From IMG/VR virus record IMGVR_UViG_3300045988_106231, positions 70,775 through 134,774 of that record: a stretch of 64,000 bases of DNA; one strand, written 5' to 3'. The translations under genes and the position numbers were made by a program. This document shows, piece by piece, positions 3,678-64,000 of the stretch; position 1 is the stretch's first letter, and every line of letters begins with the position of its first letter. Source of the stretch: a virus. The notes beneath the pieces were generated by a model. It searched no databases. It was given only the letters and a program-made list of their open reading frames with translations, and was not told the DNA's origin.

Positions 3678-3899
3678 ATGTGGGATTTAGTTGAAAATGA
3701 ATATTCTAAAAAATATGGGATTGGGTGCGCAACCTTTTTTCGTGACAAACAATTAAAAACAGCAATGGTTATGTATAAATATAATGGCCGTAGCGTTATG
3801 TTTTGCTATTCCGAGTACGATAATAAGATTCTATCTGACGGTGATAAAGATGAAATTGAGATGACAATCAAAAAGAAACTCAACTTTTGGAAGGATTAA
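3678..3899 (+). CDS. hypothetical protein, paralog family 1 (MWDL... N-terminus)
   Basis: N-terminus MWDLVENEYSKKYGIGCA matches the next ORF's MWDLMGNNYSEVYGIGYA. Confidence 0.6.
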   Translation: MWDLVENEYSKKYGIGCATFFRDKQLKTAMVMYKYNGRSVMFCYSEYDNKILSDGDKDEIEMTIKKKLNFWKD

Positions 3900-3901
3900 T
3901 T

Positions 3902-4138
3902 ATGTGGGATTTAATGGGTAACAATTATTCAGAAGTATACGGTATTGGATATGCTTTACTGAATGGAATTTCAGCTGGATTTTATGTAAGTGTCATGTAC
4001 AAGAATCTTGGAAATGAAATTTACTTCTATTATCTTGATGATGCTTCTTACGGAGAACTCGATGATAATACCAAAAACAAAATTGAAGATATTATCTATG
4101 ATGATCTTAACAAGCGTCATATTTTTGGGGAGGACTGA
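3902..4138 (+). CDS. hypothetical protein, paralog family 1
   Basis: ATG 3902; paralogous to 3678..3899 over its full length. Confidence 0.6.
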   Translation: MWDLMGNNYSEVYGIGYALLNGISAGFYVSVMYKNLGNEIYFYYLDDASYGELDDNTKNKIEDIIYDDLNKRHIFGED

Positions 4139-4140
4139 TT

Positions 4141-4389
4141 ATGTGGGATCTGATGGAAGTTCACGCTTGTTTTGATGGTGAAGGTTGGGTTTGGAATGAA
4201 TCTTTTCATCACAAGGATGTATTTGTAGATGAGAACGAAAACCCGAGAGAAATCTTTTGGCAAGAATGTCAGATGTTCTTCCTTCAGGATTATCTGAACA
4301 AATGTGAGGTCGTGGATGATGGTGATATCCTAGAACTTCAGCTAAAGGATTCTGGTGAACCAGTTCTAGCTATGATTATAGCAGAGTAA
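4141..4389 (+). CDS. hypothetical protein, paralog family 1 (N-terminus only)
   Basis: Shares MWDLME N-terminus; remainder diverged. Confidence 0.55.
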   Translation: MWDLMEVHACFDGEGWVWNESFHHKDVFVDENENPREIFWQECQMFFLQDYLNKCEVVDDGDILELQLKDSGEPVLAMIIAE

Positions 4390-12568: not shown

Positions 12569-12793
12569 ATGATGGTATATGGAAACATAACGTGTAATCG
12601 CTGTGGCATTACATGGTATGGCCCTAAATGTGGAAAGCTCTATTGTGATGAATGTCGTAAGATAATAAGAAATGAGGCATCCATTCGATGCAAGAATAAA
12701 AAGAAACATAAACCAACATTTGTTGAGATTGTAAGAATGGCAGATGCTGAAGGATTATCTTACGGTAAGTATTGCTTGAAGTATGGAATTTGA
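12569..12793 (+). CDS. zinc-ribbon small protein (CNRCG...CGKLYCDEC)
   Basis: Two CxxC pairs; GAGGTG RBS. Confidence 0.5.
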   Translation: MMVYGNITCNRCGITWYGPKCGKLYCDECRKIIRNEASIRCKNKKKHKPTFVEIVRMADAEGLSYGKYCLKYGI

Positions 12794-12800
12794 GGTGAAT

Positions 12801-13652
12801 ATGATGAGTGCGCTTGAAAACGAAAAGAAAATCGAAAATACTGTTGCTTTTGATTTTTCTGACTACGATTCTTCTAACAAAGAAAAAAGTCAGAAAGTAG
12901 TTAAAAAGAATTATAGCCTGACTCGTATGGAAGCAAATCATGGGTCGGTTCAGCCAATTAAAGACAAAGAGGATATCAAACGTATTTCAGAATATTTTTG
13001 GATTAAACGTCAGTACCGCAACTGGTGTTTGTTTAATGTAGGATGTTGCACAGGATTCAGAGCAAGTGATTTGCTTCGTTTGAAGGTTTCTGATGTAGCA
13101 GCTACAGATATGAATGGAAAGGTCGTAGTGAATTTTAACGCAAAACTTCGTGTTAAGGAAAAGAAAACAAATAAGTATCGCATTCTTAAAGTTCCGGTCC
13201 CGGCACTAAAGTGTATTCAAACTTATATCAATATTGATGGATTGTCTTATGACGATTGGCTCTTCCCGTCTCGGCAAGGCAGTTGGAAGAACTCCATGAG
13301 AACAAACGGTGGAACAAGTGTAAGTAAATCTGATGTGTTCCGTAAGTATGATGCAAATCCAAAAGAAATGGGCGACCCGCTTGATGTGGATTCTTTTGGC
13401 AGAATCATGCGTCAAGTTGGTAAGGAGTTAGATCTTCCTGTCCAGCTTGGTTCTCATAGCTGCCGCAAAACTTTCGGATATCAGTTTATTGCATCTCATC
13501 CAAATGACGTAAAAGCTCTTGCGTGGTTGCAGCATAGTCTGAATCACAGTAGTCAGGCAATTACGCTTCGCTATATTGGTCTGGATGAAGAAGTGGATGA
13601 TGAATACTACTCTGGGATTGATTATGGCGTGGACTGCCATGAAAACTCTTGA
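12801..13652 (+). CDS. tyrosine site-specific recombinase (small, phage-integrase family)
   Basis: Catalytic signature visible: TGFRASDLLRL (Arg I), HSCRKTFGY (HxxR), LQHSLNHSSQAITLRYI (His, Arg, Tyr); start 12783/12801/12804 ambiguous. Confidence 0.75.
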   Translation: MMSALENEKKIENTVAFDFSDYDSSNKEKSQKVVKKNYSLTRMEANHGSVQPIKDKEDIKRISEYFWIKRQYRNWCLFNVGCCTGFRASDLLRLKVSDVAATDMNGKVVVNFNAKLRVKEKKTNKYRILKVPVPALKCIQTYINIDGLSYDDWLFPSRQGSWKNSMRTNGGTSVSKSDVFRKYDANPKEMGDPLDVDSFGRIMRQVGKELDLPVQLGSHSCRKTFGYQFIASHPNDVKALAWLQHSLNHSSQAITLRYIGLDEEVDDEYYSGIDYGVDCHENS

Positions 13653-20471: not shown

Positions 20472-21398
20472 ATGCTTACTGAAGAAAAGATCAACGCTTT
20501 TGCTGAAAAGTATTCTGATAGAAGCGGCGAGTTTGTTATATCGACACTTAACCATGTTATGGACTACGAAGCGGAGTGCGGGTATGAGCTATTCGACTTC
20601 ACAAAAGATGATTTTGTAAAGATGTTTGCCAAATACAATTGGGTAAACTCAAGTCGTTCATTCAGAAATGTGAAATCGATAATCACTGGTTATATCAAGA
20701 ACGAAAATCGTACAAGCATGTATGATTTGGCTGAATTCTCAGAGAGCGATGTGAGTTCAGACAATATGTACGAGGACAAGTATTTTGCATCGGTTGATGA
20801 GTTTGTTGGTTTCTTAAACAAGTATGAAGAAGCGTATCAGATTCGTATGAATGTGATTGCTGTTTTGTACTGGATCGGTCTTACTTCTAGTGAGGTTTCT
20901 AATCTAACAATTAACGATGTAGACTTTGAATCTCGTACTGTCCTCGATAGGACTGATGTTGACGCAAGGTTGATGGATATCATCAAGCAGTGTTATGAAA
21001 TGAAACAGTATGATGCGCCCAATATGGGAGGATACAGAACATTTTATGTCATAAATGGTGATTACATTCTTCGTAAAACAGAGGATAGAACTGGTGTAGA
21101 CAGCGACCCGAAGATGTCTGTAAATACAATCCATAGTTATTTTGTGAGGCTGAATGACATTCTCGAAAAAAGACATCATACAAAGATTTTAGATCGAAGA
21201 CATCTGACCAGAAATGGTGAGTATGTGAAGGTCTACGATTACTGTAAGAGTAATTCAGAGTTCAACCTTGCGGAGCTTAGTTTCGGAAATGGTAAAAAAC
21301 CTCTTGCAGACATTATTGGAAGAAAGTGTAGCAAGGTAGCTTACATTAGTTTCCGGCAGGGATACAAGGGCTGGGTCGAATACTTCCACAAAAATTAA
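20472..21398 (+). CDS. hypothetical protein, possibly degenerate tyrosine-recombinase-like
   Basis: Segment AVLYWIGLTSSEVSNLTINDVDFESRTV resembles the integrase Arg-I region but with Thr in place of Arg; no clear HxxR/Y motifs. Confidence 0.4.
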   Translation: MLTEEKINAFAEKYSDRSGEFVISTLNHVMDYEAECGYELFDFTKDDFVKMFAKYNWVNSSRSFRNVKSIITGYIKNENRTSMYDLAEFSESDVSSDNMYEDKYFASVDEFVGFLNKYEEAYQIRMNVIAVLYWIGLTSSEVSNLTINDVDFESRTVLDRTDVDARLMDIIKQCYEMKQYDAPNMGGYRTFYVINGDYILRKTEDRTGVDSDPKMSVNTIHSYFVRLNDILEKRHHTKILDRRHLTRNGEYVKVYDYCKSNSEFNLAELSFGNGKKPLADIIGRKCSKVAYISFRQGYKGWVEYFHKN

Positions 21399-24071: not shown

Positions 24072-24156
24072 GGGGATATGGTGAAATTGGCAGCCACGCT
24101 TGATTCAAACTCAAGTGTCAAAAGACGTGTCGGTTCAAATCCGACTATCCCTACCA
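24072..24156 (+). tRNA. tRNA-Leu(CAA), type II, CCA encoded
   Basis: Manual fold: acceptor GGGGATA/TATCCCT, anticodon arm CTTGA-TTCAAAC-TCAAG, long variable arm, T-arm GTCGG-TTCAAAT-CCGAC. Confidence 0.7.
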
Positions 24157-24353
24157 TGAAAATCAGTTGTTTCAGCTAGATCGGGGATTGGCCGTTCATT
24201 GGCAAACGACAGGTATCATACCGGTAAAGGATACCGAGCCAAATAGGAAGGGAAATAAGGTGCAAGCCGAGTAGCTGTCGGACGAATACTCTTCAGGTAG
24301 CCAGTAAACTGGAACGTAAAACGAATGTTGGCTGTTTCTGATTTTCTTTACAA

Positions 24354-24437
24354 GCCACTGTGGTGAAATTGGCAGACACGAGGGACTTAAAATCCCTTTC
24401 TGGCAACAGAGTACGGGTCCAAATCCCGTCGGTGGCA
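24354..24437 (+). tRNA. tRNA-Leu(TAA), type II, no CCA
   Basis: Acceptor GCCACTG/CGGTGGC, anticodon arm AGGGA-CTTAAAA-TCCCT, long variable arm, T-loop TTCAAAT. Confidence 0.7.
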
Positions 24438-24444
24438 TTTATAT

Positions 24445-24520
24445 CCGGGTGTAGCTCAGTTGGAAGAGCGCGTGTTTTGGGAACATGAGGCCGCAGGATC
24501 ATGACCTGTCACTCGGACCA
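24445..24520 (+). tRNA. tRNA-Pro(TGG), CCA encoded
   Basis: Acceptor CCGGGTG/CACTCGG, D-arm GCTC..GAGC, anticodon arm CGTGT-TTTGGGA-ACATG; T-loop ATCATGA is non-canonical (A54, U58). Confidence 0.55.
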
Positions 24521-24525
24521 TATAA

Positions 24526-24599
24526 TGCGTCGTAGCCAAGCGGTTAAGGCAGGGTCCTTTGAAGTCCCGATTGCGAGAGTTCGATTCTCTCCGGCGCAA
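24526..24599 (+). tRNA. tRNA-Gln(TTG), no CCA
   Basis: U1:A72 first pair as in bacterial tRNA-Gln; anticodon loop CTTTGAA; T-arm GAGAG-TTCGATT-CTCTC. Confidence 0.6.
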
Positions 24600-24604
24600 T
24601 TTAT

Positions 24605-24690
24605 GCGGGTATGGTGAAATTGGCGAGACACGAATGCTTTAGGGACATTTGCCGAAAGGTATACCAGTTCGAATCTGGTTACCCGCACCA
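24605..24690 (+). tRNA. tRNA-Leu(TAG), type II, CCA encoded
   Basis: Acceptor GCGGGTA/TACCCGC; anticodon arm AATGC-TTTAGGG-ACATT with a C31·A39 mismatch; long variable arm; T-loop TTCGAAT. Confidence 0.55.
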
Positions 24691-24793
24691 CGGTCATAGA
24701 ATGGTTGCGTACCGTTTATTGATCTCCTTTGACCACTATTATTCCCAGCTTACTCGTAAGAGTGCAGTAGTACTTTGTAAGTTGGGTTCTTAT

Positions 24794-24869
24794 GCGACTG
24801 TAGTTCAATTGGCAGAGCGTCAGATTTCCAATCTGAATGTTGCGGGATCATACCCCGTCAGTCGCTCCA
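24794..24869 (+). tRNA. tRNA-Gly(TCC), CCA encoded
   Basis: Acceptor GCGACTG/CAGTCGC, anticodon arm TCAGA-TTTCCAA-TCTGA, discriminator U; T-loop ATCATAC is non-canonical. Confidence 0.6.
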
Positions 24870-25000
24870 CGCGCAGCCCCTTACGCTGCACCGGTTACTC
24901 AGAGCCGAAAGGAACCTATATGTTACGACATGGTTGCCAAGAGTGATCATATTGGAACGCGACGTAGCTTGGATAGTAAGAATTAAATTCTGAGGTATAC

Positions 25001-25067
25001 GGCTGGATAGCTTAATGGTAAAAGCGCTCGGAAACACCGAGAGATAAGGTTCGATTCCTTCACTGGC
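25001..25067 (+). ncRNA. degenerate tRNA-like element (pseudo-tRNA?)
   Basis: Canonical D-arm (GCT-TAATGGTAAA-AGC) and T-arm (AAGG-TTCGATT-CCTT), but no pairable acceptor stem and an aberrant anticodon hairpin CTCGG-AAACA-CCGAG. Confidence 0.35.
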
Positions 25068-25096
25068 ATCGCGCCGATGAAAGTCGGCGTTTGCAT

Positions 25097-25188
25097 GGGA
25101 CGTTAGCTTAGTTGGTTAAAGCTCCTGGCTCATAACCGGGTGATGAGGATAACACCTCACAGGGGTTCGAGTCCCTTACGTCCCACCA
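25097..25188 (+). tRNA. atypical tRNA, anticodon CAT, 20-nt variable arm (92 nt, CCA encoded)
   Basis: Acceptor GGGACGT/ACGTCCC, D-arm GCTT-AGTTGGTTA-AAGC, anticodon arm CCTGG-CTCATAA-CCGGG, variable arm with TGAGG/CCTCA stem, T-arm AGGGG-TTCGAGT-CCCTT. Confidence 0.55.
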
Positions 25189-25385
25189 GCCCGATAGGGC
25201 ATACATAAAATCTGCTAGAACTTTTGTTTTATAAGCGAATGAATAATATGACGTTAATACGTCTATTATTTTTCGCTCATTTTTAAAGTTTTAGCTATAT
25301 TACACAGGATACTAAAGGGGGAGTTGTAATCTTACGAGTTTTAATTGCCTGTGAGGAATCACAGGAAGTTTGTAAAGCATTTCGA

Positions 25386-26018
25386 TTGCTTGGTCATGAA
25401 GCGTATTCTTGTGATATTCAACCTCCGTCCGGTGGTCACCCAGAGTGGCATATTTTGGGTAATGCACTGGCAGCTTTACAGGGTGGGCAGATAGTCACAA
25501 TGGACGGCACACAACACTATGTTAAGCAGTGGGATCTATTGATTGCACATCCTCCGTGTACATATTTATCAAACGCTGGCGCACGATGGTTGTGGGCTGG
25601 GCACAAATTGAATCAAGAACGGTATCAACAGGGATTAGAAGCTAAGGAATTCTTTATGGCGTTTTACAACGCACCGATCAAACACATTTGTGTTGAGAAT
25701 CCAATTCCGAGTGCTGTTTATGAAATGCCAAAACCATCGCAGATGATTCAGCCATATGAATTTTATGGTAAGGACCATCCATGGACAAAGAAGACCTGTT
25801 TATGGCTGAAAGGTCTTCCTAATCTGGTTCCGGTTGAAGCGGTTGAACCGAAGGGTCCGTATTGCCCTTGTGGAACTTCGGCCAATAAAGGCAATGTAAG
25901 AAATCGTGGCGCAGCTAAACGTGGTGAGGATGCAAAGAATAGAGCTAAGACCTTCCATGGGATTGCTCGTGCTATCGCAGAACAATTTTCAGAGTACATT
26001 GAAAATGAGGTGAATTGA
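25386..26018 (+). CDS. C5-cytosine-methyltransferase-like protein with degenerate motif I; start unclear (in-frame extension to 25317 with no ATG/GTG/TTG)
   Basis: AHPPCTYLSNAG matches C5-MTase motif IV (PCQ.FS.AG) with catalytic Cys; ICVENP matches motif VI (ENV). The upstream in-frame sequence LRVLIACEESQEVCKAFRLLGHEAYS aligns to the motif I region but lacks the FxGxGG glycines. GGGGGAG RBS at 25317-25323. No target-recognition domain; only ~230 aa. Confidence 0.5.
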   Translation: MLGHEAYSCDIQPPSGGHPEWHILGNALAALQGGQIVTMDGTQHYVKQWDLLIAHPPCTYLSNAGARWLWAGHKLNQERYQQGLEAKEFFMAFYNAPIKHICVENPIPSAVYEMPKPSQMIQPYEFYGKDHPWTKKTCLWLKGLPNLVPVEAVEPKGPYCPCGTSANKGNVRNRGAAKRGEDAKNRAKTFHGIARAIAEQFSEYIENEVN

Positions 26019-26560
26019 TGCCAGAAAACAAAGGATATCTTACAGCTGACCGATCTGTATCAGGTGATGAGCGATATACACCGGTTTATGCGGTTGTTCC
26101 ACTGCTTGAGTTCACCCCCCCGTCGAGTAAAGCTGTGATTTGGTGTCCGTTTGATAAAGAATGGTCTTCCTTTGTGAAGGTATTCAGAGATGCTGGGTAC
26201 AAGGTAGAATGTAGCCACATTGATAACGGGCAAGATTTCTTTACATATGAACCAGAGCGTTGGGATGTTATGATTTCAAATCCTCCTTTTAGTAGGAAGG
26301 ATGAAGTATTGCGTAGAGCCTATGAGCTTGAAAAGCCGTTTGCTCTACTACTTCCTGCAAATAGTATTCAGGGTAAGACACGATTTGACATCTTCAAAAA
26401 TGATGTACAGATGCTGTGTTTTGATTCTCGAATCGGATTTATGGACCCTGAACATACTGACAGCCCTGTTGAGGGAGTGTCGTTTGGAAGTGCGTACTTC
26501 TGTAGAAATTTTCTTCCAAGTAAGTTAGAGTTACGGAAACTCGATAAAAAAATCTCATAA
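26018..26560 (+). CDS. N6-adenine DNA methyltransferase, phage Dam-like
   Basis: YTPVYAVVPLL followed by ISNPPFS (motif IV NPPF/DPPY); 4-nt overlap with upstream MTase-like gene. Confidence 0.6.
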   Translation: MPENKGYLTADRSVSGDERYTPVYAVVPLLEFTPPSSKAVIWCPFDKEWSSFVKVFRDAGYKVECSHIDNGQDFFTYEPERWDVMISNPPFSRKDEVLRRAYELEKPFALLLPANSIQGKTRFDIFKNDVQMLCFDSRIGFMDPEHTDSPVEGVSFGSAYFCRNFLPSKLELRKLDKKIS

Positions 26561-26588
26561 AAGGCTAATTCAAATAATAGGTGACCTA

Positions 26589-26795
26589 ATGAACAGCAAA
26601 ATTCCTATCAATGTAACTATCGACCACGGTTCCTTGAGCCTTCCGGCAAGTCCTATCTTTCAGAAGGAGAAGAACACGTATCTCTGTCCGTTTTGTGTGA
26701 CGAAGCTGGAAAAGTTCGAGTGTGAATGTTCTGATTGTCATCGCAAGATGGATTGGAGCAGGTTTACTGAAAAGAAGGAGGAGATGTTTAGTTGA
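26589..26795 (+). CDS. zinc-ribbon small protein
   Basis: CPFC...CECSDCHRK Cys pairs. Confidence 0.5.
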   Translation: MNSKIPINVTIDHGSLSLPASPIFQKEKNTYLCPFCVTKLEKFECECSDCHRKMDWSRFTEKKEEMFS

Positions 26796-62833: not shown

Positions 62834-64000
62834 ATGATAAGACGTAAAGATAATAATGGCAAAGTTTTAAAAGACGGCGAGAGCCAGAGAAAGGATGGGA
62901 GATACCAATATAGATGGACAAACAAACTTGGAAAACGCTCAATAATATACGCCACTTCACTTAAAGAATTGAGAGAAAAAGAAGCTGAAATCCAAGAAAA
63001 ACTTAATTTTGGTGTAACGTCTATTTCAAAAATCACAGTGTACCAATTAGCAAAAAGACATCTCGAAGAAACAAAACTCACTATTAGGCCAAGCAGCTAT
63101 AAAACAAAATCGCAGAATTTGAAAATCTTTCAGAATCACCTAATTGGGGAAATGAATGCAACTGATATTTTAGTGCGCGATGTAAAACAATTTGCACGAG
63201 AATTGGATAACGAAGGATATTGTTATACAACAATCAGAGATGTCATGTCTTTAGCTAGACCGGCATTTCAAGAAATGTTTGATGAGAATATAATTCCTAG
63301 AAATCCATTCGTTTTTAAATTAAATACAGTTGTCAAATGTGACTCAAAAGAAAAAGAAATATTAACAGAAGAGCAGTATCAAAATCTGATCAAGTTCATG
63401 AAATCTAGTCGAGTATATAAAAGGCATGTTGGCATGGTGATGCTTTTGCACGAGACAGGACTTCGAGCAGGAGAATTATGCGGGCTAACAAAAAAGTCAT
63501 TTGATTTTGATAACAACACTGTTACTATATCTCATCAGATGGTGTACGATGGAAAGAGCGGCGGGCTGTATTTAGCACCTACAAAAACAGAAAGTGGGAT
63601 AAGGACTATCCCATTGTCTAAAGACGCCATCATTGCTTTTGAAGAAGCGATAAAACAACGACCGATTGTAAAAGCAGAGAGAATAATAGATGGGCAAGCC
63701 GACTTCTTGTTTATAGCAAAAACTGGAAGGCCCTATACGAATAAAAACCTTGTTAGAATTTTTGAAGGACTAATCAAAGCCTATAATAGTTGCCATGATG
63801 AACCATTGCCTGAAGTCACTGCCCATAGTATGCGCCACGAATATTGTACACGGCTTGTCAAAGCCAAGATGGATGTTAAATCGGTTCAATACCTCATGGG
63901 ACATTCGTCGCCCGATATAACCTTAAAAGTGTATACTCATATCTTAAAAGAAGAGACCGAAGCAGAGGCAATCAAACAGTTTAATAGGATTGTTTCCTAA
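62834..64000 (+). CDS. int: tyrosine integrase, Tn916 Int family
   Basis: N-terminus RRKDNNGKVLKDGESQRKDGRYQYRW parallels Int-Tn916 (RRDNRGRILKTGESQRKDGRYLYKY); catalytic AHSMRHEYCTRL and LMGHSSPDITLKVYTHI (H-R-Y); AAGGAG RBS. Confidence 0.85.
   Translation: MIRRKDNNGKVLKDGESQRKDGRYQYRWTNKLGKRSIIYATSLKELREKEAEIQEKLNFGVTSISKITVYQLAKRHLEETKLTIRPSSYKTKSQNLKIFQNHLIGEMNATDILVRDVKQFARELDNEGYCYTTIRDVMSLARPAFQEMFDENIIPRNPFVFKLNTVVKCDSKEKEILTEEQYQNLIKFMKSSRVYKRHVGMVMLLHETGLRAGELCGLTKKSFDFDNNTVTISHQMVYDGKSGGLYLAPTKTESGIRTIPLSKDAIIAFEEAIKQRPIVKAERIIDGQADFLFIAKTGRPYTNKNLVRIFEGLIKAYNSCHDEPLPEVTAHSMRHEYCTRLVKAKMDVKSVQYLMGHSSPDITLKVYTHILKEETEAEAIKQFNRIVS

Follow-up and report, generated by a model that had tools for sequence, protein, structure and literature searches.

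The phage gene at positions 25329-26018 of the window (the whole 64,000-nt stretch of viral DNA analysed here) is real and intact, not broken, and its product is most likely a weakly translated DNA cytosine methyltransferase with a presumed role in anti-restriction. We put the probability at roughly 0.6 that the gene encodes an active, compact enzyme of the DNA cytosine-5 methyltransferase (C5-MTase) type that belongs to the PHROG 757 family, starts at an ATC codon and forms part of an anti-restriction cassette.

Reading frame and start codon

The coding sequence and the elements proposed for its translation are as follows:

25329-26018, + strand: coding sequence of the compact C5-MTase-like protein (229 aa), with the stop TGA at 26016-26018
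25329-25331, + strand: proposed ATC initiation codon, at the position where homologues begin M(L)KVLIACE
25314-25323, + strand: Shine-Dalgarno-like purine-rich AAAGGGGGAG, ending 5 nt before the ATC at 25329

A purine-rich site resembling a ribosome-binding site, a product of approximately 230 aa and a possible rare ATC start had all been proposed in the first-pass annotation, together with the TTG at 25386 as the first in-frame ATG, GTG or TTG, and these points agree with what we find. The in-frame stop that it placed at 25314-25316 was misread: this triplet is AAA (Lys), and a TAA close by, at 25313-25315, belongs to another frame. The true in-frame stop is the TAA at 25284-25286, leaving the frame open for 10 codons further upstream than claimed, with no ATG, GTG or TTG from this stop until 25386. 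Among the approximately 95 stop-to-stop frames of at least 90 codons on the + strand of the window, the 33 codons that precede the first canonical start make this frame a clear outlier. The same scan flagged 2 other frames, each short and overlapping a larger frame; one falls within the NrdD gene.

Comparison with 2 related assemblies, L001 and L002, bears directly on the start. Both carry AAAGGAGGAA at the position equivalent to AAAGGGGGAG, 7 and 8 nt before the ATC, and across all 3 independent assemblies (window, L001 and L002) the ATC lies 5-8 nt past the Shine-Dalgarno site. TGTAATCTTACGAG is invariant across the 3 assemblies, which are distinguished by indels of 0, +1 and +2 nt immediately upstream of the ATC. 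Given these different upstream lengths, no frame further upstream can be common to all 3. Both substitutions found among the assemblies in codons 1-19 are synonymous, and the dN/dS of the gene against L001 and L002 is approximately 0.05, indicating purifying selection. Judged from these alignments, the missing canonical start is genuine and conserved, and the ATC at 25329 appears to be the best reading of the start; initiation there would be expected to yield the N-terminal peptide MLRVLIACEESQEVCK.

Near-cognate AUH starts have precedents. The E. coli genes infC and pcnB have AUU, AUC or AUA starts that limit expression, and they resemble the window gene in placing such a codon behind a normal Shine-Dalgarno site. 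AUC-type starts yield 1-2% of the AUG level in E. coli reporters (bioRxiv 10.1101/063800), an efficiency that may differ in the host of the window phage, which is probably a gut member of the Clostridia. As a weak start, the ATC would therefore keep the enzyme level low.

We rejected 2 other ideas about the start. An out-of-frame TTG/GTG-TAA start-stop overlapping the ATC, followed by re-initiation, was set aside as the main route because those codons lie 0-4 nt from the Shine-Dalgarno site, compared to 5-8 nt for the ATC. A link between the ATC and an odd tRNA(CAU) upstream was also discarded, since a CAU anticodon does not read AUC; moreover, L001 has a copy of tRNA(CAU) of normal length.

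A member of the PHROG 757 family

In a profile search, the 229-aa protein matches PHROG 757 ("DNA methyltransferase") with E = 2.1e-55 and 188.5 bits, and the match is full-length (residues 3-227 against profile positions 16-225 of 247). On this similarity, the gene is a further member of a catalogued family whose function is presumed from remote similarity. PHROG 757 comprises at least 4,171 clusters at 50% identity and is represented in 161 phage records, whose annotations read DNA, SAM-dependent or cytosine methyltransferase. Its members, all small, are spread over tailed phages, gut Clostridia prophages and microviruses, in genomes ranging from 5 kb to 130 kb. A 5.6-kb microvirus carries one as an accessory gene, which fits the remark in PMC9239249 on accessory methyltransferases for restriction escape in microviruses.

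The closest GenBank phage record is Clostridium phage phiCs5676-1 (OR574845.1), with 55% identity; other kin are proteins of Vibrio, Cellulophaga, Ruegeria, Arthrobacter and Pelagibacter phages and microvirus accessory genes. Like the window protein, these relatives are approximately 200-240 aa long, are encoded in replication/modification modules and contain the CE-x-S-Q/G, S-x-D, PPCT, ENP, K-x-T-x-LWL and KTFxGIAxAMAxQW blocks. They start at ATG or GTG, whereas the window clade starts at ATC, and most have Asp at position 45, where the window clade has Asn.

Matches to other resources are sparse. The family has no Pfam or NCBIfam model, the NCBIfam and PADLOC methyltransferase models do not match the 229-aa protein, and Pfam PF00145 gives no match to it at E ≤ 1; 9 of 72 family members match PF00145, all below threshold (best E 0.055). 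Megablast of positions 24900-26700 against 50,697 phage records returned no match, and 5 longer members (P0223, P0155, P0106, P0111 and P0005) contain no Pfam domain fusion that hints at function. In the literature, we found no biochemically characterised member of PHROG 757, and none shown to methylate DNA. A very large family, with neither the canonical SAM loop nor a target-recognition domain, has been named "DNA methyltransferase" by remote similarity alone.

Conserved motifs on a C5-methyltransferase fold

Conservation was counted in an alignment of 72 family members. To map the motifs, the PHROG 757 profile was compared by hhalign with a diverse C5-MTase profile assembled from 80 viral loci; the two matched with E = 0.0024 and a probability of only 12%. 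This diverse profile was needed for alignment beyond motif IV; against M.HhaI alone or 120 close M.HhaI homologues, motif IV alone was aligned. The elements identified are the following:

25350-25364, + strand: CEESQ loop (residues 8-12), following strand beta1, where motif I FxGxG would lie
25407-25415, + strand: S27-C28-D29, equivalent of motif II, at the end of beta2 (S27 and D29 each 72/72)
25458-25463, + strand: G44-N45, equivalent of motif III (GD), aligned with M.HhaI G59-D60
25548-25580, + strand: motif IV HPPCTYLSNAG with the putative nucleophile Cys77 (P76 72/72, C77 71/72)
25695-25703, + strand: motif VI ENP, E123-N124-P125 (E123 and N124 each 71/72, P125 72/72)
25740-25814, + strand: motif VII/VIII-like block QMIQPYEFYG...KKTCLWLKG (Q138 and K154 invariant, T156 and W159 near-invariant)
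25815-25946, + strand: variable basic loop of approximately 44 aa (residues 163-206), at the position of the target-recognition domain
25947-25988, + strand: conserved C-terminal KTFxGIAxAMAxQ[W/F] segment and helix

The window protein carries all residues that are invariant in the alignment (C8, E9, S27, D29, H41, P76, P125, Q138 and K154) as well as C77, E123 and N124, each absent from a single member. Its sole departure from the conserved set is N45, at the adenine-binding position, where 65/72 members have Asp.

Motif IV and the ENP of ICVENP had been recognised in the first-pass annotation, as had IACEESQE at the motif I position, and all 3 are borne out. HPPCTYLSNAG aligns with M.HhaI GFPCQAFSISG, placing C77 on C81, and D29, whose acidic side chain is expected to contact the ribose of the cofactor, is paired with M.HhaI E40. 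ENP is paired with M.HhaI E119-N120-V121 only where the hhalign alignment extends at lower confidence. In the same low-confidence extension, the motif VII/VIII-like block lies opposite M.HhaI LNALDYGIPQKRERIY, and HPWTKKTCLWL lies opposite IPQKRERIYMI of motif VIII (QxRxR), with no Arg pair.

The CEESQ loop was placed by predicted secondary structure (beta1 at residues 3-7, helix at 13-20) and an extrapolated hhalign register. FxGxG is absent across the family: the loop after beta1 is free of glycine in 65/72 members and has one Gly, at its last position, in 7/72. The description of this SAM motif as degenerate does not hold, as CE[E/Y/F]S[Q/G] is a conserved family consensus (C8 and E9 72/72, S11 70/72, Q12 65/72, Gly in its place 7/72).

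The view that the protein has no target-recognition domain is correct in that no large domain lies between motifs VIII and IX; it overlooked the basic loop of approximately 44 aa found there instead, which varies in length and sequence across the family (alignment columns approximately 235-300) and includes the residues of low confidence in the AF2 model (pLDDT 60-63 at residues 181-200). Beyond the loop, conservation reaches 90% or more at each of T208, F209, G211, A213, A215 and Q219, and the model has a helix over residues 210-228; this C-terminal segment is likely the counterpart of motif X.

The AF2 model of the 229-aa protein (pLDDT 92.8, pTM 0.90) has the C5-MTase catalytic-domain fold. 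Foldseek against the PDB placed DNMT3A/B at the top (E = 2e-5), with TM-scores of only approximately 0.45, and the structure matches in BFVD are mainly viral cytosine methyltransferases. DNA enzymes rank above Dnmt2 in both structure searches. HMM searches of PDB sequences, with the single sequence and with the family profile, gave no meaningful match.

Comparison with characterised enzymes

With canonical C5-MTases such as M.HhaI, M.HaeIII and Dcm (PF00145), the window protein has in common a catalytic fold of the Rossmann type, motifs II, III, IV, V (FF), VI and VII/VIII in the same order, a Pro-Cys nucleophile and, in motif VI, Glu-Asn. It differs in having C-E-E-S-Q for FxGxG, PCT for PCQ, ENP for ENV, apparently Lys154 and Thr156 for the motif VIII arginines, and the short loop for a target-recognition domain of 80-150 aa. 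The smallest target-recognition region known among C5-MTases is that of DNMT3A and DNMT3B. The DNMT3 enzymes, however, keep a standard glycine-containing motif I; they also form oligomers with DNMT3L or themselves, of which the sequence and model of the window protein give no sign, and have regulatory N-terminal domains.

CmoX (PDB 8yf3), a phage-encoded C5-MTase homologue, is the only C5-MTase with a weak sequence match to the window protein (E = 0.93). According to PMC12783734, CmoX is a DNA cytosine C5-carboxymethyltransferase that is encoded along with a phage CmoA gene and uses a key Arg to contact the Cx-SAM carboxyl group; on this account, it demonstrates that a cofactor switch is possible in the C5-MTase fold. 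CmoX is longer (372 aa) and an ordinary C5-MTase homologue by sequence, matched by M.HhaI at E = 4.9e-14. A PHROG scan of the 30 larger ORFs in the window revealed no CmoA or other cofactor-synthesis gene, and the acidic CEESQ loop would not favour a carboxylated cofactor of the CmoX kind.

Genomic context

Seven tRNA genes lie directly upstream of the C5-MTase-like gene in the window and in both L001 and L002. The elements flanking the gene in the window are:

25250-25273, + strand: terminator-like hairpin and T-run, GACGTTAATACGTC then TATTATTTTT, a consensus match from a pattern scan only
26018-26560, + strand: N6-adenine-methyltransferase-like gene (180 aa, NPPF motif, phrog_799 E = 1e-32)

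The hairpin sits between the tRNA(CAU) and the C5-MTase-like gene, and is probably a boundary between the tRNA cluster and the methyltransferase genes. The ATG of the N6-adenine-methyltransferase-like gene overlaps the TGA of the C5-MTase-like gene by 1 nt; its product has only sub-threshold Pfam matches and matches PADLOC MTase_II at E = 2e-4. L001 has a PF01555 methyltransferase in the equivalent downstream position, and a Dam-type N6A methyltransferase directly adjoins the PHROG 757 gene in 16 of 81 viral loci. Most PHROG 757 loci lie in replication/recombination modules, near genes for DNA methyltransferases, SSB and DnaD-like proteins, and are without an adjacent tRNA cluster. There is no sign of base hypermodification by the phage, the thymidylate-synthase match being an ordinary ThyX (RHRxxS...SxRY motif).

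Proposed mechanism and alternatives

We propose that the enzyme is translated at a low level from the ATC at 25329, behind a good Shine-Dalgarno site, and that it binds an adenosyl cofactor, most simply SAM by homology. Asp29 would hold the cofactor ribose and Asn/Asp45 would bind the adenine, leaving the methionine end to the Cys-Glu-x-Ser-Gln/Gly loop that is peculiar to the family. The target cytosine would be flipped out and attacked at C6 by Cys77, with Glu123 protonating N3, and a one-carbon group would be moved onto C5. Since a short, variable, basic loop replaces the target-recognition domain, the enzyme would probably recognise a very short motif or have low specificity. Its gene and the N6-adenine-methyltransferase-like gene next to it may constitute a small DNA-modification cassette that shields phage DNA from host restriction. 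In this picture, the data show the fold, the conserved motifs, the purifying selection, the geometry of the start site and the gene neighbourhood, from which the cofactor, substrate, chemistry and anti-restriction role are inferred.

The same fold and covalent Cys chemistry could instead serve another cofactor or transferred group; a switch of cofactor or substrate had also been raised in the first-pass annotation. PHROG 757 would then form a branch of its own within the C5-MTase fold, with a modified cofactor pocket, and would place a non-methyl group on cytosine or perform SAM-independent C5/C6 chemistry. On this view, the pocket would be given a different shape at the methionine/sulfonium end of SAM by the invariant Cys-Glu(-Glu)-Ser-Gln loop; the cofactor might be a SAM derivative, or SAM might be dispensed with, as in the addition of an aldehyde, a deamination or the removal of a C5 group. 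We consider this unlikely: throughout the family, invariant residues that are bulky or charged stand in place of the motif I glycines, and the Pfam, NCBIfam and PADLOC methyltransferase models miss the family, but the acidic positions that bind ribose and adenine are kept as in SAM enzymes, the scan of the 30 larger ORFs revealed no CmoA-like gene, and the neighbouring genes are ordinary methyltransferases. The family also occurs alone in 5.6-kb microviruses, and the cofactor must therefore be one that the host already makes. Were the pocket altered in this way, the family would represent one of the most widespread uncharacterised phage DNA-modification activities, from 5-kb microviruses to 130-kb phages, held at low dose by AUH starts in some lineages. 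The family may hold a C5-MTase that operates with only a small reading head and no glycine loop for its cofactor, or it may carry out a new DNA modification; each outcome would serve work on phage-host restriction and perhaps also the design of epigenetic tools. It is more doubtful still that the substrate is something other than double-stranded phage DNA, such as RNA (in the manner of the Dnmt2 tRNA m5C activity), single-stranded DNA or free nucleotides. The lack of a large DNA-reading domain, the upstream tRNA genes and the members in ssDNA microviruses would suit such a substrate; however, most family loci lack a tRNA cluster and lie beside DNA-related genes, DNA enzymes outrank Dnmt2 in the structure searches, and microvirus replication passes through a double-stranded form.

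An active DNA cytosine methyltransferase also accounts better for the conserved residues than a catalytically dead relic, be it an anti-restriction decoy or a regulator like DNMT3L, whose only role would be to bind DNA, a host protein or a partner methyltransferase. Inactive paralogues of the DNMT3L kind keep the fold and lose the catalytic Cys and Glu. The missing canonical SAM loop and target-recognition domain, the invariably small size and the frequent adjacency to another methyltransferase are compatible with a relic, and an inactive paralogue had been suggested in the first-pass annotation, but a pure binder needs none of Cys77, Glu123, Asn124 (each 71/72) and D29 (72/72), and the loss of the Cys in one member (P0179) is an isolated exception. 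This makes a dead protein quite improbable. We attach hardly any weight to a pseudogene or a 5' assembly error, likewise raised earlier, in which a TTG-initiated 210-aa product or nothing at all would be made. There is indeed no canonical start before 25386, and for 2 close relatives (P0001 and P0006) gene callers choose a start further downstream, either a TTG or an internal Met. Against this stand the identical ATC arrangement in 3 independent assemblies, the low dN/dS and the synonymous changes in codons 1-19; an informal look revealed no purine-rich site before the TTG comparable to the strong Shine-Dalgarno site that is optimally spaced from the ATC. Starting at the TTG would also delete strand beta1, the invariant C8-E9 loop and helix A. 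Gene calls that shorten this gene or its close relatives to the TTG or an internal Met remove that strand and the Cys-Glu loop, and so miss the true product.

Reading frame and start codon

The motif-bearing frame translates as ...SFSYITQDTKGGVVILRVLIACEESQEVCKAFRLLGHEAYSCD...HPPCTYLSNAG...ICVENP... up to its stop codon, and all the motifs picked out by the first-pass annotation were found in it:

25350-25364, + strand: CEESQ, translated frame
25548-25580, + strand: HPPCTYLSNAG, translated frame
25695-25703, + strand: ENP, translated frame
26016-26018, + strand: stop codon TGA, ending the motif-bearing frame

A frame scan likewise bore out TTG 25386 as the earliest in-frame ATG, GTG or TTG. 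The in-frame stop that had been placed at 25314-25316 is AAA (the adjacent TAA at 25313-25315 is out of frame), and the true upstream in-frame stop is TAA 25284-25286; apart from this one misplaced stop, the earlier observation is essentially right. The gene has 33 codons ahead of the first canonical start, which makes it a clear outlier: the window has approximately 95 + strand stop-to-stop frames with 90 or more codons. The same scan flagged 2 other frames, both short and overlapping larger ones; one of them lies inside the NrdD gene.

Either a rare start or a 5' defect had been proposed. We compared the start with those of 2 close relatives from unrelated assemblies, L001 (ENA ERZ28575496; 97-98% protein identity) and L002 (SRR5106481; approximately 95%), which have the same arrangement as the window gene. 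TGTAATCTTACGAG is identical in all 3 aligned DNA sequences, and the stretch between the Shine-Dalgarno and this block varies by 0, +1 and +2 nt (GGGGGAG--TTG, GGAGGAA-TTG and GGAGGAATGTG). Given these length differences, there is no common reading frame upstream of the invariant block, so translation must begin no earlier than this block. ATC 25329 is the first codon that could plausibly serve, at 5, 7 and 8 nt downstream of the Shine-Dalgarno in the 3 sequences. Codons 1-19 contain 2 substitutions, both synonymous (TTA/CTA and GAG/GAA), and dN/dS is approximately 0.05 in all 3 pairs (215 codons). Distant homologues have ATG-AAA-GTT at exactly the same place, giving MKVLIACEESQ, or start with MLKVL, and a TTG start would remove strand beta1, the invariant Cys-Glu loop and helix A. 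The ATC arrangement shared by unrelated assemblies and the low dN/dS argue against a 5' defect, and we conclude that the gene is intact, with a weak ATC start. AUC initiation in E. coli reporters is 1-2% of that from AUG, with Met inserted (10.1101/063800); a low level of the enzyme would be expected from such a start.

Where the usual initiator Met aligns (~5001), family locus L046 has ATT/ATA and loci L071, L079 and L086 have ATA. A Shine-Dalgarno-like sequence is present 6-9 nt upstream of the AUH codon in these loci, and alternative canonical starts are possible 6-11 codons upstream. Weak AUH starts may thus recur in PHROG 757 lineages.

Family membership and spread

The protein matches the phage "DNA methyltransferase" family PHROG 757 with E = 2e-55 over residues 3-227, and has no match in Pfam or NCBIfam. 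A tblastn search returned 161 phage records, 154 of them near full length, from phages of Flavobacterium, Vibrio, Cellulophaga, Pseudomonas, Ruegeria, Arthrobacter and Burkholderia, cyanophages and others, annotated as DNA methyltransferase, SAM-dependent methyltransferase, putative cytosine methyltransferase or hypothetical protein. An exhaustive HMMER scan gave 4,171 clusters (50% identity) at E ≤ 1e-3 and 2,603 at E ≤ 1e-10, the best-scoring being mostly 200-240 aa. An identical protein is encoded on IMG/VR UViG_3300045988_101066 (129.7-kb contig). The nearest chromosomal relatives, in gut and rumen Clostridia (Oscillospiraceae, Ruminococcus and Lachnospiraceae), presumably sit in prophages. 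With no more than 55% identity to any GenBank phage, the gene adds a new and somewhat divergent member to an already catalogued family.

The gene is also found as an accessory gene in Microviridae. The microvirus L250 (MG945386.1; circular, 5,635 nt, pig faeces) carries a homologue at 3790-4362, between VP1 and VP2, with 55% identity to the window gene over 165 aa, in agreement with the published accessory methyltransferases of microviruses (PMC9239249). Several 5-8 kb faecal or porcine records, mostly unannotated, also carry the gene (H2, H3, H5, H13 and H25).

The family protein P0004, from 79%-identical relatives (L003-L008, e.g., L004 4210-4899), belongs to a TAG-recoded phage; 4 of the 8 called genes of L004 contain an in-frame TAG. 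Both TAGs in the methyltransferase-like gene of P0004 align with Trp of the window protein and of the family proteins P0002 and P0003, at W40 (W/Y/F in 64 of 72 members) and at W89, which is variable across the family. The database translation of P0004 takes TAG as Gln, and the match of TAG with Trp comprises just these 2 sites.

The motif I loop

In an alignment of 72 diverse family members, C8, E9, S27, D29, H41, P76, P125, Q138 and K154 are invariant. C77, E123 and N124 are each conserved in 71 members, S11 in 70, and Q12 in 65, with G in the remaining 7. Of the 96 scorable sequences among 150 cluster representatives, 81 have CEESQ as the loop; CEYSG, CEFSG and CECSQ are minor variants. The loop is therefore constrained more strongly than most of the protein, and what had been called a degenerate motif I is the family norm, a functional element and not decay. 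Interest lies in the family, for its size, its absence from Pfam and its unusual cofactor loop, and in the conserved ATC start, not in a defect of the window copy.

One family representative, P0179 (238 aa), has lost the catalytic Cys, with DPPGEF in place of HPPCTY and CEKHQ as the motif I loop, and may be a genuinely inactivated derivative.

Relation to C5-methyltransferases

The relationship to C5-MTases is barely visible to sequence-profile methods and visible in structure. PF00145 gave only sub-threshold matches, in 9 of the 72 members, and HMM searches against PDB sequences found nothing. Foldseek matched DNMT3A/B (E = 2e-5, TM ~0.45), and the BFVD matches are mostly viral cytosine methyltransferases, some likewise short (150-225 aa). 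We also aligned the 72-member family with a diverse C5-MTase profile built from 80 viral loci (hhalign, E = 0.0024), using M.HhaI as reference (its sequence identical to PDB 10mh over 327 residues). In the confident part, AYSCD29 corresponds to VYSNE40 of M.HhaI (motif II), G44-D/N45 to G59-D60 (motif III) and WDLLIAHPPC77TYLSNAG to HDILCAGFPC81QAFSISG (motif IV); in the extended, less certain part, VE123NP corresponds to ME119NV and QPYEFYG..HPWTKKTCLWL to NALDYG..IPQKRERIYMI. Motif order from II to VIII is thus preserved, as are the nucleophile and the acidic residue of motif VI, supporting the original C5-MTase-like reading. In contrast to canonical C5-MTases, the window protein has CEESQ as motif I, PCT for PCQ and ENP for ENV, and lacks a target-recognition domain and, apparently, the motif VIII arginines. 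Residues 163-206 form a Lys/Arg-rich loop, variable in length and sequence and poorly predicted (pLDDT ~60). The protein is a C5-MTase-fold enzyme, filed under PHROG 757 and not PF00145 because it lacks 2 sequence features that define the Pfam family.

Function

An inactive paralog acting as a binding protein, as suggested initially, is argued against by the conserved catalytic residues, and an adenosyl cofactor is favoured by conservation of the acids that bind ribose and adenine. The simplest mechanism, every chemical step of which we infer, would be methylation of cytosine at C5 with SAM as donor, at short or loosely specified target sequences. Across the family, an invariant Cys-Glu stands in place of the glycine loop, so that a different cofactor or reaction is conceivable, with the phage enzyme CmoX as a precedent (PMC12783734); we consider this unlikely. 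Among the window ORFs scanned, none resembled CmoA or another cofactor-synthesis gene. For the putative cytosine methyltransferase, a DNA-modifying, anti-restriction role is favoured by its methyltransferase-rich surroundings and by its occurrence in minimal genomes.

Genomic surroundings

The gene is flanked by the following features:

24072-25188: seven tRNA genes, upstream
25250-25273: terminator-like hairpin, upstream
26018-26560: gene for a 180-aa NPPF protein, downstream with a 1-base overlap (phrog_799, E = 1e-32)

The 180-aa protein has the NPPF motif of N6-adenine methyltransferases, a sub-threshold Pfam match (EcoRI_methylase, 20.4 bits; cut-off 26.4) and CPFDKEWS at the usual position of the glycine-rich motif I. 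The corresponding position in L001 is occupied by a different, canonical N6/N4 methyltransferase (PF01555), suggestive of cassette exchange. Of 81 viral family loci, 16 have a small Dam-type (DPPY/NPPY) methyltransferase as the immediate neighbour (median gap 22 nt), and SSB, DnaD-like and RusA-like genes are often found alongside. The remaining window is a replication and nucleotide-metabolism region, with genes for a Sak4-like ATPase, DnaB, primase, RecJ, DNA polymerase, helicase, ligase, ThyX, a kinase, NrdD/G and FolD.

Three integrase-like (tyrosine recombinase) genes are present at 12783-13652, 20472-21398 and 62834-64000, an unusual number for 64 kb, in the same phage as a full replication module, seven tRNAs, ThyX, NrdD/G and FolD.

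Within the tRNA array, the tRNA with anticodon CAU immediately upstream of the gene (25097-25188; also L002 972-1063 and L009 4769-4860) is 92 nt long and carries a 17-nt variable-region insertion, gaugaggauaacaccuc, unusual for a Met/Ile-type tRNA; the L001 orthologue (465-539) has the normal length of 75 nt. An additional, weak tRNA-like element at 25002-25068 scores just above the Rfam threshold (30.1 bits), without an ARAGORN call. In L009, the IMG/VR contig with the identical protein, the Leu(taa) and Pro tRNA genes are approximately 82-85 nt nearer the gene than in the window (compared at window 24270-24450); an indel thus separates the tRNA arrays of otherwise near-identical phages.
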